A DNA stretch of 64,000 nt. Origin: Schmidtea polychroa (lineage: Eukaryota). The position numbers were made by a program, and so were the translations under genes. Positions 36,822 to 64,000 of this stretch are shown piece by piece; the first letter of the stretch is position 1; the number at the start of each line of letters is the position of its first letter. The notes below the pieces were generated by a model. It was given only the letters and a program-made list of their open reading frames with translations. It had not been told where the DNA came from and did not search any database. The stretch spans positions 26,600,001-26,664,000 of the forward strand of contig CM097885.1 in NCBI GenBank assembly GCA_044892525.1, given 5' to 3'.

Positions 36822-39016
36822 ATCAATCACTTTTATGCCAAATTTTTGTGACAAAATTTCCAAAATCGATAGTAAGCATTGATCTTTATTTGTATATTAA
36901 TTGTTTAATTATATAGATGGTATTTTAAATTTATTTTTGCTTAAAATTTTTTTTTGCGATGTATGAGTGATCAACGGCGTACTGGTATTCCTGCGTCGTT
37001 GTTCAGTCCTGCATCCAATTTATTAAAATCGTTATTAACAAGACATGCAGACACGCATTATCGTTATTATAGTGATATTTATTATATGATTTCCTTTTGT
37101 TCGGGTCAGCCGGAGGTCGAACTACTTCATGGTCCTGCCATGGAGTTAGGTCGAGGAAACCCTCCGCCTGACTCTTCGTATTTATTTAAGGTCAGCCGTA
37201 AATGGTTGACTTAGCACACAACACTAAGGTTTGTGGACGTGGTCACAGTGAGGCCATGAAAGCAATATTCTTCCCGACTCATTGCGTAATATACAATTAA
37301 ACTCAACACTTAAAATCCTGAACAATAACTCTACACTAAGGTTCTAATTTGAGTAGAGCTCGTACCTAAAATTACACAATTCTACACTCACATTAATGTA
37401 GCTAGTTGATTCATAATGGTAATTTCAATTATACTTAGACATATGCCGAACTAGATTTTGTAGTAAGGATCTTTGATAAAGTAATAGAAAAAAGAGAGAT
37501 ATTCGGCATACGTACAGGTATAACTTGATCTAGATATGTTGATTCCGAGTAAAGATAGACATTTTAAATCTAGCTCCCACTTTAAAATGTTTGTAAATGT
37601 GTAGGCTCTTAGTTGTAATATTCTTGTTGTTAACTATAAAACTATAAGTTATAAATAATTACGATAGCTAGGTACAAACCACGTCGATCCTGAAAATGTA
37701 AATTGTTAATGGAGAAAGTCTGATCAGAGATAGTAGTAAACAATTTTCGTATAAAAATCAACTTAGGATTGGTTACAGATAGGCGATAGACGCGCTAGAA
37801 CCCTGAAGTTTAATCCACAAATAGGACCAGGAAATCTGTAAGTACTGCGGAAAACAATGTTGATCATAGAAGGAAGTTGTAAGAAGTATATTCCGTCGAC
37901 TAAAAATTTCAAATTATAAAGTATGAAAATACGAATTACAAAAGTATAAATTTTAGATTATAAACTTATAAATTATAAGTTAAGCAATTATAACTTATAA
38001 AATATGAATGTATAAATTTCAAAATATGAAATTAATTATAAATTACAAGATTGTAAATCCCTAAATGGAAAAATTTTAAATTATAAATCGAAAATTATCA
38101 AAGTATAAATTATAAAACATGAATTTATAATTCTAAAACATGGGATTATAAAATTATAGTTATCATAATCCTGATCATTTCCCTTGTTATTACTATTAGC
38201 AGTATCAACATTATCATCACTATTAGTATTATTATTCTTATTATTATTATATTATTATTATCATTATTATGAATATCATAATTAGCATTATTATTATTAT
38301 CATCATTATCAGTACCATTATAAAAATTTATTATTATTCTTGTTATTACTATTATTAGTATTATTATTATTACCATTATTAAAATTTATTATTATTCTTA
38401 TTATTATTACTATCATTGCTATTATTAATATTATTATTATCATTATTATTATTATTATTAGTATCGTTATTTCATTGTTATTATTATTGGTATTATTACA
38501 GTTAACTACAAAAAATCGATATCCCAATCCGATATCGATCACCTGGAAATTTAGAAATTAGCAAATTAAATAAATTACTTGTATGCAGAGCAAACCACTC
38601 ATAACGAGCACAACCGAAGGAAAGGTAAGCAGACGAAGAGCTTAGTTCGTTGCTAGTACCTGTCGCCCCAGCGTGCCCGAATTTAGTGGCCTAAGAATGA
38701 CGATCAAAAAGGAAAAAATTCACATTTTATTAATATGTAAATTAAAATTTATAAATAGTAATTAAAATTACTACTCAGTGGTAAACAAAATTTTGAATGG
38801 AAATGATTAATTTAAACAAACGAATTTTGACGAAAATTTTTTTTTGTGTGTTTGTTTTGATAAAGTAGGAAATCTTATTCCACTGCTCCTAAACTTATAG
38901 ATGGTAGTCTTAAAATAAAATATTTTTTTTTTTAAAGGGAAAAAGGGTCAACAAAATCTTGTGGTTGACGTCGTATCTCAATCAGTATAGAGGGGCTTGA
39001 TTATTATTTTGTAGAA

Positions 39017-39382
39017 ATGTCCTACTCTGACAGCGATAGCCACGAAGAAGCCGACCGACAGATGCTTACCAGACTCCGTACACGGTACATATGGCACCGT
39101 ATCCATGATTGGAATCGGGGTTTGGACCTCGACAACTTTGGCCCAGTAATCAGGAGTGGGCCGGAGCCGGACGCTCCGGCGTGGGTAAAAACAGAGCCCA
39201 CAAACGATTTTTTGCAAGAGGCCCGCGACCGAGCGGCCATCGAGGTAGAAGCAGCTCAGATGCGACTCAAGAAGATCGAGCTACAAATCCAAGCAGAAAA
39301 AGAGGGAAAAACCGTGGAGGACCTAGAAGAGGCCGAGGCAACCCCGCGGAAGAGGGGAAGGCCTCGCAAGCGACTGAACTGA
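39017..39382 (+). CDS. LTR-encoded 121-aa protein with C-terminal AT-hook
   Basis: Short coiled coil followed by TPRKRGRPRKR (canonical AT-hook). GC-rich coding-like island with acceptor-like ttttgtag 2 nt before the ATG and AATAAA at ~39473. Confidence 0.65.
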   Translation: MSYSDSDSHEEADRQMLTRLRTRYIWHRIHDWNRGLDLDNFGPVIRSGPEPDAPAWVKTEPTNDFLQEARDRAAIEVEAAQMRLKKIELQIQAEKEGKTVEDLEEAEATPRKRGRPRKRLN

Positions 39383-39592
39383 CTCATCGTCAAAATTTTG
39401 TTTTTTGCAAATTAACATTCAGTTGCGATTTTATTAAACTTTGATTTTAGTGATAATTATTTCAGTCCTTTTAATAAACCATCTTGTGTATTGCGTGCTT
39501 AACATCCGAAACTATGTTTATTTATAATATTGATTTTATTTTATAATTGAATGAATAGTAGGCTGCAAGAATATAATCGTTGAATTTATCTA

Positions 39593-40063
39593 GTGTTCAG
39601 ACTATTGGAAAATCTGCGAAGAGATAGGGCAGAAGCTCAAAAACAGTCCGAGGAACTCCGCATACGAGTAGACAAGCTCAAGGGACGGTGCCGGGAACTA
39701 GAAAGCACCTGGTTTAGTCCCGAGGATATGAAAAAGAAGGTGGCGCAGGTCCTTCAACTGCAGACTCAAGCCGCGCAGGATCAGATGGAGATCCGGGCAC
39801 TGAAGCTCCAGCTCCGCGCGCTAGAAACCGAGCGAAATGAACAAGTAGTTCACGGAGCCGCCATAAGCCAAATCCGGCCGTTGACCGTGGAACTAGCAGC
39901 AAAATACCCCCCGGCCGCGAAAGAGAAACCCAAAAGAAAGCGGTTAGGCCGAAATATTCGGGAAAAATTGAAGAAAGCTAGACTGGCCGAATACGAGCGA
40001 CAAGCAAATTTGTCACTAGCAGCTGCGACGAAATTGGCCAGTCCTACCAATAAGCCTGTTTGA
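39593..40063 (+). CDS. LTR-encoded coiled-coil/basic protein (~156 aa, start uncertain)
   Basis: GC-rich open frame with heptad-like segments and basic KPKRKRLGR. There is no ATG at the 5' end, and it is preceded by AG acceptor candidates. Confidence 0.55.
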   Translation: MFRLLENLRRDRAEAQKQSEELRIRVDKLKGRCRELESTWFSPEDMKKKVAQVLQLQTQAAQDQMEIRALKLQLRALETERNEQVVHGAAISQIRPLTVELAAKYPPAAKEKPKRKRLGRNIREKLKKARLAEYERQANLSLAAATKLASPTNKPV

Positions 40064-40469
40064 ACTTATATTCGGTTTTAGGTGTTTTGTAGTATTTTTA
40101 TGTATTGTGGTAGTCTTCAAATAATATGTTCCTTGTTAAAATACTGCACGTTTTGTAGTGATAAAATAATGACTAGTACAGTTTATGATTGCCTGGGAAA
40201 TGAGAGTTTGTGCATAAGGTTGGGAAAACAATTTTGATAAAGGGACCTGAGAAATCGGACACACACCTTCTATCGGTAGTCCGTGAACCCACGGAGTACT
40301 CGACAACTATAGTGCTTTGATGCGCTCACTTTTTGCGAGTACTCAACCCTTGGTACAGTACCAACGTTGATCACTCAACGGGTACCAAGCGGAAAAACAA
40401 TGTTGTATTTTGGGTTACGCTGGTAACAGCACTCAATCATTCAACCACCAGTAACCCACCATACAAATT

Positions 40470-40487
40470 TGGGGGCTCAGCCGGGAT
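40470..40487 (+). promoter_or_regulatory. Primer-binding site, tRNA-Pro-like
   Basis: tgggggctcagccgggat matches the tRNA-Pro PBS TGGGGGCTCGTCCGGGAT at 16/18 and lies just after the LTR end. Confidence 0.85.
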
Positions 40488-63532: not shown

Positions 63533-63564
63533 TCGAAGGGAGATGTTGCCTGTAAATAAGAATG

Positions 63565-63623
<59 letters not shown>
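63565..63623 (+). repeat. Poly(A) tract (59 nt) in an intergenic spacer
   Basis: Uninterrupted A run 33 nt after the 63532 stop. Confidence 0.9.
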
Positions 63624-63625
<2 letters not shown>

Positions 63626-63708
63626 AAAACCAAATAAAAATTACAAAACCAAAAAATTCAGAATAAAAAGAAGACAAAAGGAAATATGATATGTATATTT
63701 TTGTAGAT

Positions 63709-64000
63709 ATGAATTATTTAAAAGAAAGAGAATCAACGAGTAACGAAGGAAAGTCAAACGACCAACCTGAACAAAACCAGGATATGATACCAATCAAACA
63801 AGAACCGATGAAATATTATAGCAATAAATGGAGAGTCAGCAAGAAGTTGTTCAAATTAAAGATTGCAAATCAAAATGTAGAGATTACGAGATTGAGGCAG
63901 CATATTGTTCAATCAAGACGATTAATAAACACTGTCAAGCAAGAAATTTTGAGGGAAATAAAGGAATCGAAACGAAAAGAGACAGAAAATAAAAACCTGA
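63709..64000 (+). CDS. Further accessory ORF, open to the window end (not in the ORF track)
   Basis: ATG at 63709 after tttttgtag-at. MNYLKERESTSNEGKSNDQPEQNQDMIPIKQEPMKYYSNKWRVSKKLFKLK... runs 97 codons without a stop. Confidence 0.7.
   Translation, partial: MNYLKERESTSNEGKSNDQPEQNQDMIPIKQEPMKYYSNKWRVSKKLFKLKIANQNVEITRLRQHIVQSRRLINTVKQEILREIKESKRKETENKNL

Follow-up and report, generated by a model that had tools for sequence, protein, structure and literature searches.

A Burro1-like giant Gypsy element of Schmidtea polychroa with a layered cargo of candidate host modulators under purifying selection

Introduction

Can a planarian retroelement encode proteins that act on the death and stress pathways of its host cell, and do such proteins form one functional module? 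This question is raised by a stretch of 64,000 nucleotides (nt) of the Schmidtea polychroa genome (GenBank assembly GCA_044892525.1, contig CM097885.1, positions 26,600,001 to 26,664,000 of the forward strand), in the following called the window. It contains most of a giant Ty3/Gypsy-type element that encodes a TRAF, an IAP and further TRAF-, Bcl-2-, ubiquitin- and ankyrin-type domains. An earlier note on this DNA had proposed that this cargo is one coherent module of cell death and tumour necrosis factor (TNF) signalling. We found that the cargo, with the exception of one MATH domain, is under purifying selection and differs between related element families. The reading which we prefer, and consider probably correct, is that this Burro1-like element encodes trans-acting modulators of the host, partly inside its polyprotein and partly as accessory genes, and that the set was built in layers.

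Elements of this class have been described before. PMC6431247 (with reference to Jurka 2007 and Grohme 2018) reports MATH_TRAF_C, BIR, ankyrin, BCL2-like and Ubi/SUMO-like motifs and an in-frame env for Burro1/GYPSM1 and already proposes interference of Burro with apoptosis and ubiquitination; the earlier note was right that giant Burro elements of Schmidtea were known. The BIR and RING protein B-IAP of Burro1 is reported to protect stem cells from caspase-mediated apoptosis and to support regeneration (Lee, Poulet, Allikka Parambil, van Wolfswinkel, Dev Cell 2026, doi 10.1016/j.devcel.2026.03.001, as cited in PMC13465017). The available parts of PMC11410931 and PMC13238120 contain nothing further on Burro cargo. 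On the host side an expansion of planarian MATH genes (PMC6109357), increased cell death after loss of a host TRAF (PMC7586133) and a role of host xiap and traf2-1 in infection pathology (PMC4993586) were reported.

Delimitation and Classification of the Element

The window contains the 5' long terminal repeat (LTR) alone, and the boundaries of the element were resolved by adding adjoining genome stretches, of which L001 is the next one after the window. The element extends from 36140 to 70216 in coordinates continued past the window end, with a total length of 34,077 bp and an internal region of 25,433 bp; all its features are given on the forward strand. The 5' LTR (36140..40461) and the 3' LTR (L001 1895-6216, corresponding to 65895-70216) both comprise 4,322 bp, show 0 mismatches to each other and possess TG...CA ends. 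The element is flanked by a 4-bp target-site duplication, GAGC. Since the 3' LTR lies outside the window, the LTR pair was invisible to repeat finders run on the window alone. The start at 36960 assumed in the earlier note falls inside the 5' LTR, and the element ends beyond the window, at which the note had let it stop; all cargo does lie between the LTRs.

A primer-binding-site-like 20-mer, which we take to be a tRNA-Pro primer site, follows the 5' LTR after a few nt (40468..40487). In the 781-Mb genome it is matched exactly at 1,044 places, compared to 0 for a reversed control, and no tRNA gene was found in the 11 loci examined for comparison with it. The element shows the order protease (PR), reverse transcriptase (RT), RNase H (RH), integrase (IN) and a Ty3-type capsid (Pfam: Retrotrans_gag, Ty3_capsid). 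Together with the two TG...CA LTRs, the target-site duplication and the primer-binding-site-like sequence these are the features of a Ty3/Gypsy LTR element. The total size above 30 kb with an internal region of ~25 kb, an open reading frame (ORF) 1 of ~4,800 aa with an in-frame env that separates gag from pol (represented in the family by 4,791-codon frames) and the set of MATH, BIR, ankyrin, BCL2-like, ubiquitin-like (Ubl), coiled-coil and three CCHC knuckle motifs are those of Burro. Burro1/GYPSM1, Burro-2, -3 and -4 of S. mediterranea likewise exceed 30 kb, with ~25 kb internal, a giant ORF1, three CCHC knuckles, the order PR-RT-RH-IN and a Smc-like motif; the ORF1 of Burro1 is quoted with 4,873 aa, compared to 4,791 codons from stop to stop in other copies here (PMC6431247). 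By its architecture the element is Burro1-like, a giant Gypsy/endogenous-retrovirus-like element whose insertion we take to be very recent.

The LTR start yielded 2,333 genomic candidates, and most paired matches were ~29.8-30.2 kb apart. For the stretch containing TRAF and IAP 40 of 40 scored matches (from 360 candidates) were full length and ~100% identical, and many element copies are >99% identical. At G000:C4:44129423-44189281 three LTR starts spaced by 29.8 kb were observed, apparently two tandem elements with a common LTR. The window element itself appears to be inserted into a decayed hAT-like transposase, as judged by eye (window 35800-36139, L001 6217-6750).

Five coding families, A to E, were compared. 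The window element belongs to family A; C, D and E are represented by one copy each, that of D being broken. The primer-binding-site-like 20-mer is identical in A and B. A polypurine tract, a usual though not a strictly required feature of Ty3/Gypsy elements, is absent from both, and a conserved 35-nt, GC-containing non-purine motif lies before the 3' LTR (L001 1860-1894; L066 1-34); purine-rich tracts were found at this place in C and E.

Domains of the ORF1 Polyprotein

In other copies ORF1 is one 4,791-codon frame. In the window copy it is split into two frames at the RNase H/integrase junction (~54350-54372), and the earlier claim of long open frames for all cargo has to be qualified accordingly. 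The first frame (44347..54372; 3,341 aa) encodes Gag with three CCHC knuckles, Ubl repeats 1 and 2, a MATH domain, Ubl repeat 3, a Bcl-2-like domain, Env, PR, RT and RNase H. The second (54350..58414; 1,354 aa) encodes integrase, ankyrin repeats (Pfam E 4e-9), an acidic linker and a membrane protein with a signal-like segment at aa 856 and a transmembrane segment (TM) at aa 1244. The Env-like fusion glycoprotein (PF24664, Pfam E 1e-68; 49714..51636) has a TM at aa 2367 and lies in frame between gag and pol. Catalytic motifs are present in PR, RT and RNase H (52129..54156). The region 52447-52860 between PR and RT showed no Pfam match to dUTPase; the published dUTPase-like call came from HHpred.

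The MATH domain of ORF1 (47572..48024, aa 1080-1224) is of the TRAF type (Pfam E 4e-29) and stands without RING or coiled coil. Its closest solved structure is TRAF3 (E 2.5e-31). It retains a TRAF3-like receptor-binding segment in which the stand-alone TRAF of family A has diverged, and it is absent from ORF1 of family B. The three Ubl repeats are located at 46411..46641, 46936..47199 and 48394..48606. A profile built from 11 Ubl repeats matched single ubiquitin with E 3e-5; repeats 1 and 3 were tested as members of this profile only, and a model of repeat 2 (pLDDT 83) matched Ubl structures. A function of the repeats as di-glycine processing signals was rejected by eye, as GG follows only repeat 2 in A and is absent in B.

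The Bcl-2-like domain (49114..49629) and the Ubl repeats were not detected by Pfam in the window copy, and a single-sequence search of the PDB also missed the former; both were confirmed through their relatives. For the Bcl-2-like domain a model was built from five element-derived sequences (pLDDT 73). In a structure search with this model Bcl-2-fold chains occupied ranks 1-34 of the best 50 matches, the best one with Z 12.0 and a root-mean-square deviation of 3.0 over 136 aligned residues, and unrelated entries appeared from Z 5.5. Foldseek gave only E values above 0.001, and every match listed belonged to the Bcl-2 family; in families D and E a Pfam Bcl-2 match was obtained below the cut-off. 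As judged from the model, the domain is a Bcl-2-family helical fold with BH2. It directly precedes the Env leader in all five families. NWGR, which we take as the BH1 motif of Bcl-2 proteins, is absent in 5 of 5 families, and a death-blocking role of the domain is therefore unproven. Some viral Bcl-2 members function without a BH1 motif.

A recurring motif, probably a protease site, borders the domains of the polyprotein and is found at the PR/RT and RH/IN borders as well. As the pattern was derived from the sequence itself, its count is circular and only the fit to the PR/RT and RH/IN borders is independent.

Accessory Genes

In the leader a 160-aa ORF (41185..41667) encodes a C-terminal IAP-type RING (Pfam E 5e-12) without BIR, 27% identical to its counterpart in family B. 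Six further ORFs follow 3' of pol: a 151-aa protein, the TRAF, the IAP, two coiled-coil proteins and one membrane protein. The 151-aa protein (58563..59018) has no assigned family and is 32% identical to that of family B.

The TRAF gene (59108..60532) encodes all parts by which a TRAF is defined, i.e. RING, zinc fingers, coiled coil and MATH (Pfam: zf-TRAF; MATH E 8e-27), and its product is 30% identical to the family B TRAF. Its RING is a variant with Cys for His and a 2-residue insertion relative to family B; Pfam detects the RING in B only, and in the window copy the region matches TRAF6 and TRAF2 RING structures.

The IAP (60673..61851; 392 aa) possesses one canonical BIR with CCHC zinc ligands (E 1e-15) and a C-terminal RING (E 3e-12), the layout that is also found in baculoviral IAPs. 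A degenerate second BIR-like stretch was recognized by eye. cIAP1/2 contain three BIRs and a CARD; the element IAP, with a single Pfam BIR, no CARD match in Pfam and 392 aa, falls outside this architecture. The best single-BIR structure matches were XIAP entries, and the cIAP chain of 3m0a, presumably a TRAF complex with cIAP, was matched with E 4e-9. For a UBA domain between BIR and RING there was a resemblance by eye only, and no structure match was obtained for 61438-61680. Like the window IAP, B-IAP of Burro1 is an element-encoded protein with BIR and RING (PMC13465017).

Downstream of the IAP follow a 532-aa coiled-coil ORF (61934..63532), which likely corresponds to the 'Smc' motif of the literature, a 255-aa coiled-coil ORF which starts inside the window (63709..64000) and ends at L001 476, and, outside the window, a 328-aa ORF (L001 553-1539) whose product has a hydrophobic N-terminus and a TM. 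None of the coiled-coil and membrane ORFs showed a death-pathway family match in Pfam. Two small ORFs in the LTR encode 121 aa (39017..39382, with AG 2 nt before the ATG) and a coiled-coil-like protein of 111 aa (39728..40063), each with a weak relative in family D. An A run of 59 nt (63565..63623) in the spacer between the coiled-coil ORFs comprises 5-37 nt in other copies.

Most of the inventory in the earlier note was thus borne out: the full TRAF, the BIR and RING IAP, the second RING ORF, the second MATH and the ankyrin repeats by Pfam and structure matches, the Bcl-2-like and Ubl domains through the models and profile of their relatives. The two membrane proteins it named are present, and the 328-aa ORF past the window end adds a third. 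In the available part of PMC6431247 a separate full-length TRAF 3' of pol, spacer signals, selection values and shorter families are not mentioned; Grohme 2018 and supplements may have them.

Selection on the Cargo

The 3' region was fetched for 19 other copies (91-99% identical), which were picked from 150 scored BIR matches, and the upstream region was taken for 10 of these, three being partial. The cargo order was identical in all 19, with some of it broken or deleted. Full-length frames were retained for the TRAF and for the 532-aa ORF in 11 copies each and for the 328-aa ORF in 14; the IAP frame was full length in 19 of 19, a count biased by the choice of copies from BIR matches.

The ratio of nonsynonymous to synonymous rates (dN/dS) was computed on variants shared by at least two copies, with 89 ambiguous variants dropped. 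It amounted to 0.00 for RT-RH (0 nonsynonymous and 76 synonymous variants), 0.02 for IN, 0.03 for Env and 0.08 for Gag. For the cargo we obtained 0.08 for the Bcl-2-like domain (1/5, six variants, p 0.008), 0.10 and 0.06 for Ubl (the latter for repeat 3), 0.14 for the ankyrin repeats (9/26), 0.14 for the RING ORF (3/8), 0.23 for the TRAF (59/97, p 2e-19) and 0.24 for the IAP (55/89, p 1e-17), with 0.04 for its RING and 0.29 for its BIR. The values for the remaining ORFs were 0.13 (151 aa), 0.20 (532 aa), 0.27 (255 aa) and 0.40 (328 aa). Stop variants were shared in one case and private in 20. Thus, TRAF, IAP, RING, Bcl-2-like, Ubl and ankyrin cargo is under purifying selection, which is less tight than that on the enzymes.

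Several points weigh against this result. The ORF1 MATH gave 0.45 (p 0.13, 13 shared variants), which is not significant. Drawing copies from a BIR match list favours intact BIRs, and the 89 ambiguous variants were left out. Private variants also showed dN/dS below 1; therefore, the shared and private classes are not cleanly separated.

Layering of the Cargo in Related Families

Family B was located through a TRAF-domain search (G000:C2:35889511-35919611) and has identical LTRs of 3,877 bp. Identity to A is 178/195 in RT, 382/638 in Env and 59/170 in the Bcl-2-like domain, and the cargo frames and their order are kept at 25-33% protein identity. B carries TRAF, RING, Bcl-2-like, Ubl and ankyrin cargo; neither a BIR-IAP nor an ORF1 MATH was found in the three copies read through. 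Families C, D and E are shorter (Gag-Ubl-Bcl-2-like-Env-Pol-membrane tail) and gave no TRAF, IAP or ankyrin match. The IAP was found in one of the five coding families only, namely A. Hence Ubl, Bcl-2-like domain, Env and membrane tail are an old core common to the five families, the giant A/B lineage acquired the RING, the ankyrin repeats and the TRAF row, and the IAP and the ORF1 MATH are found in A only. The toolkit is therefore layered and not one fixed module, and the 'coherent TNF module' of the earlier note was overstated.

A Burro-like element of Dugesia tigrina resembles family B in that its ORF1 is without MATH and an accessory ORF carries this domain; in D. tigrina the MATH ORF lies upstream, and here the TRAF gene lies downstream of pol (PMC6431247).

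Twenty primer sites, sampled at steps from the first 100 listed, fell into five A, five B-like, three H (a short element derived from A) and seven G (Gag-only or near). The non-autonomous copies read (2/2 H, 3/3 G) lack Pol, Env, TRAF, IAP, RING and Bcl-2-like domain; H retains the membrane tail and remnants of small ORFs. This joint loss of TRAF, IAP, RING, Bcl-2-like domain and Env with Pol fits proteins that are supplied in trans. That the IAP-less family B is about as abundant as A in this sample (5/20 sites each) counts against the reading which we prefer.

Further observations on these families were made. In H (L115-L116, L118-L119) Gag-Ubl and the membrane tail are joined in frame, in one copy as a single ORF of 1,479 aa, and the spacer motif described below is kept after the stop. 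G (L120-L125) is a ~13.5-kb unit with the common primer site and a 760-aa ORF in 2/3 copies read; five primer sites at 13.5-kb spacing (G000:C1:77268872-77323111) suggest a tandem G array. Family E contains a 777-aa downstream ORF (L075 1655-3985) with no Pfam match, the middle of which looks DEDD-exonuclease-like by eye. LTR-end fragments 70-82% like family A lie within a few kb of 5/20 TRAF-bearing loci fetched (L044, L049, L052, L056, L059), and one adjoins the fetched family D copy.

Origin of TRAF and IAP

The nearest named relatives of the element TRAF in a HMMER library search are triclad proteins. In a tree of 45 full-length TRAFs those of A and B and one library protein cluster together (SH-aLRT 99) inside a larger group (support 93) of host and triclad TRAFs; the tree program flags the amino-acid make-up of the element TRAFs, so this clustering may be partly an artefact. 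A word-based search for homologues revealed none among 4,524 candidates, and the closest full-length library TRAF (P0004) is not encoded in genome G000, where the best match reaches 36-37%. The TRAF is likely an old capture from the triclad TRAF family. In a MATH-only tree the three element domains group weakly (65/64) apart from the host expansion on chromosome 2 (99/99); a derivation of that expansion from Burro, which we had considered, is not supported by this placement.

For the IAP only two named matches were found, both molluscan XIAP-like proteins. A host RING-IAP donor gene was not found in searches that were saturated by element copies, and the sole host BIR fetched is survivin-like.

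Spacer Signals and Proposed Expression of the 3' Genes

Five of the six spacers between the 3' ORFs lie within 58415..63708 (76-176 nt), the sixth at L001 477-552. Each of the six contains TGTAnA(A/T)A 16-18 nt after the stop and an AG that ends 0-3 nt before the next ATG. The string TGTA.ATA occurs 8 times in the spacers of A (0.86 in shuffles) and 10 times in those of B (0.55), compared to 0.11 per kb of coding sequence. In LTR and leader the motif would be met at that distance with a chance of 0.9%, and it was found in 0 of 23 host TRAF-like genes. For the AG, the required distance is found at 25% of spacer positions. Variable positions number 4 of 124 in the motif and AG sites and 88 of 528 in the remaining spacer sequence (p 2e-5). 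In family B the motif is present in four of five spacers, 13-22 nt after the stop. Its position is fixed relative to the upstream stop and not to the downstream ATG; therefore, a 3'-end or 3'-untranslated-region signal is more likely than a promoter of the next gene. The motif is similar to Pumilio and CFIm sites, and the spacers show no enrichment of AATAAA. The best donor consensus in LTR and leader, AG/GTAAGC at 38622..38630, is a candidate common splice donor, being the only match in a strict scan and one of four in a loose one.

Taken together, these spacer signals suggest spliced or trans-spliced processing. To be set against this are the definition of the motif on A after inspection, its lack in one of five B spacers and after the last ORF, the mere near match after the RING ORF, and an AG before the first ATG in only 3/5 ORFs of one B copy. 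In addition, four sequencing runs whose RNA nature was a guess yielded contigs that read through two spacers without splicing and show no joint at the acceptors, as would be expected of genomic RNA or DNA. One joint leads from the LTR to the spacer before the TRAF, at depth 5.9 and at a place other than the AG; we regard it as probable repeat noise. Another contig leaves the element sequence in the TRAF-IAP spacer (L068 ~2194, window ~60643) with 255 unlike letters and possibly represents an IAP-less variant, and contig depth falls inside the LTR.

Tentatively, the messages of the 3' genes may be produced by cis-splicing from the LTR donor near 38624. Alternatively the row could be a true operon resolved by spliced-leader trans-splicing, in which the motif would mark cleavage and polyadenylation upstream and the AG would accept a host leader. 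The six same-strand spacers of 76-176 nt lie under the 300-bp operon threshold (PMC12582326, where trans-splicing in Schmidtea is also noted) and near the Macrostomum peak of ~100 bp (PMC8629364), and the linkage of the motif to the upstream stop agrees with this explanation. No leader-bearing loose end appeared among the contig rows listed, as judged without a planarian leader sequence for comparison. The lack of AATAAA enrichment, the strong LTR donor that makes cis-splicing sufficient and the shortening of genomic RNA by internal cleavage, unless regulated, also speak against an operon, which we regard as doubtful. Re-initiation or another route is unlikely, and internal promoters are quite unlikely. 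Equally doubtful as the operon is its combination with an Env leader peptide that would serve in all five families as membrane anchor of the Bcl-2-like domain, making this domain ancient core. In a literature search no paper on the spacer signals or on Burro trans-splicing was found; the same searches missed the 2026 IAP paper, so this result is weak, and text or supplements of Grohme 2018, Rossi 2014 and Lee 2026 may cover them.

Proposed Role of the Cargo

From the anatomy, copy number, selection, layering and conserved spacer signals observed above we infer the processing routes and, apart from that of the IAP, the functions. Ubl repeats, Bcl-2-fold domain, lone MATH and ankyrin repeats would be made within the Gag-Env-Pol polyprotein and probably be released by the element protease. 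RING, TRAF, IAP, coiled-coil and membrane proteins would be separate genes, expressed from single-gene messages by means of the acceptors before the ATGs and the 3'-end signals after the stops. The IAP presumably blocks caspase-driven death, as reported for Burro1, and the TRAF, MATH, RING and Ubl parts would most likely adjust ubiquitin-dependent stress and immune signalling in favour of the survival of expressing cells. The anti-death, stem-cell survival module of the earlier note is probably right for the IAP in view of the Burro1 work cited in PMC13465017. The stem-cell picture is qualified by reports that BURRO1 RNA is enriched in the intestine and rises in live differentiated cells upon smedwi-2 RNA interference (RNAi), that transposon levels are largely unchanged in neoblasts and that BURRO1 RNAi does not rescue smedwi-2 RNAi (Li et al. 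2021, PMC8532177).

Three other explanations were weighed against that of a layered set of host modulators. If TRAF and IAP acted as one TRAF-cIAP-type ubiquitin-ligase module at TNF-receptor-like complexes, as the earlier note had it, the adjacency of the two selected genes, the match of the BIR to the cIAP chain of 3m0a and the receptor-binding segment kept by the ORF1 MATH would be accounted for. It is, however, the stand-alone TRAF that has diverged in this segment, family B retains a TRAF without IAP, families C to E have neither, and the IAP resembles XIAP entries best and shows no CARD match; such a module is unlikely. That the cargo is neutral, captured host sequence carried by a young burst is extremely improbable. 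Many copies are >99% identical, and intact frames alone therefore prove little, but shared-variant dN/dS lies well below 1, frames and order persist between A and B at the low identity given above, and the element TRAFs form their own clade and are not nested on a host gene. Neutrality is refuted for TRAF, IAP, RING, Bcl-2-like, Ubl and ankyrin cargo, the ORF1 MATH excepted; with its fixed order and its place inside the LTRs the cargo also does not vary at random or belong to flanking host genes.

A rather less easily dismissed, though still improbable, explanation is that most cargo serves replication of the element (particle assembly, trafficking, fusion, turnover of Gag and Env) and that the IAP is the sole host modulator. 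Bcl-2 folds have other uses (PMC2494871). Ubl and Bcl-2-like domains lie inside the structural polyprotein beside Env in all five families, BH1 is degenerate, and the coiled-coil and membrane ORFs lack a death-pathway family match. On the other hand, the shorter families replicate without TRAF, RING and ankyrin repeats, and a complete TRAF, comprising RING, zinc fingers and MATH, is not known to act in particle assembly.

Among known systems, large DNA viruses offer comparable modulators. The Bcl-2 fold found here is 4-14% identical to solved cellular and viral members (viral Bcl-2 homologues, vaccinia A52/B14). In contrast to DNA viruses the cargo resides on an LTR retroelement, partly in a polyprotein, and the nearest named IAPs are molluscan and the nearest named TRAFs triclad, not viral. 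In complex retroviruses and errantiviruses Env and accessory genes follow pol and are probably expressed from spliced messages. Here, env (PF24664) lies in frame upstream of PR and is not a separate ORF downstream of pol, and the accessory genes form a row of six ORFs with repeated spacer signals.

Neighbouring Sequences

Two near-identical intronless HEAT-repeat genes, which we take to be deoxyhypusine hydroxylase-like, lie on both sides of the element, inverted relative to each other (window 24319-25218, forward strand; L002 8983-9882, reverse strand). L002 445-4434 contains Polinton-like remnants, as judged by eye (integrase, ATPase-like and capsid-like ORFs). The window further contains hAT-type transposon fragments (17823-18218 and 19545-20153, by Pfam), another transposon fragment (31504-32193) and a Penelope-like endonuclease tail (2499-3218, by eye). 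Bcl-2-like genes were also met in other repeats: a multicopy 152-aa Bcl-2 ORF beside a protein-primed DNA polymerase B (L083 4705-5160 and 8274-9998), apparently a Polinton-like element with Bcl-2 cargo, and a multicopy two-exon Bcl-2-like gene (L081 ~4800-5320, L082), with dozens of matches with one TAG.

Conclusions

That a giant planarian retroelement with death-pathway cargo aids stem-cell survival has been published before, for the IAP with experimental support. Added here are the selection on the cargo, the layered family series and the spacer signals, which lead to direct RNA tests and provide a testable model for the expression of six downstream genes. If the operon explanation were true, a retroelement would employ host trans-splicing to run several host-controlling genes as one cassette and might thereby link cargo expression to stem cells. 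For planarian genomics a caution follows: element copies swamp searches for host IAPs and inflate TRAF and MATH counts, although the main expansion of host TRAFs forms a clade of its own. A natural comparison is offered by the presence, in one genome, of families that carry IAP or TRAF and of families that lack them, and the selection on TRAF, RING, Bcl-2-like, Ubl and ankyrin cargo implies that the IAP is not the whole story.

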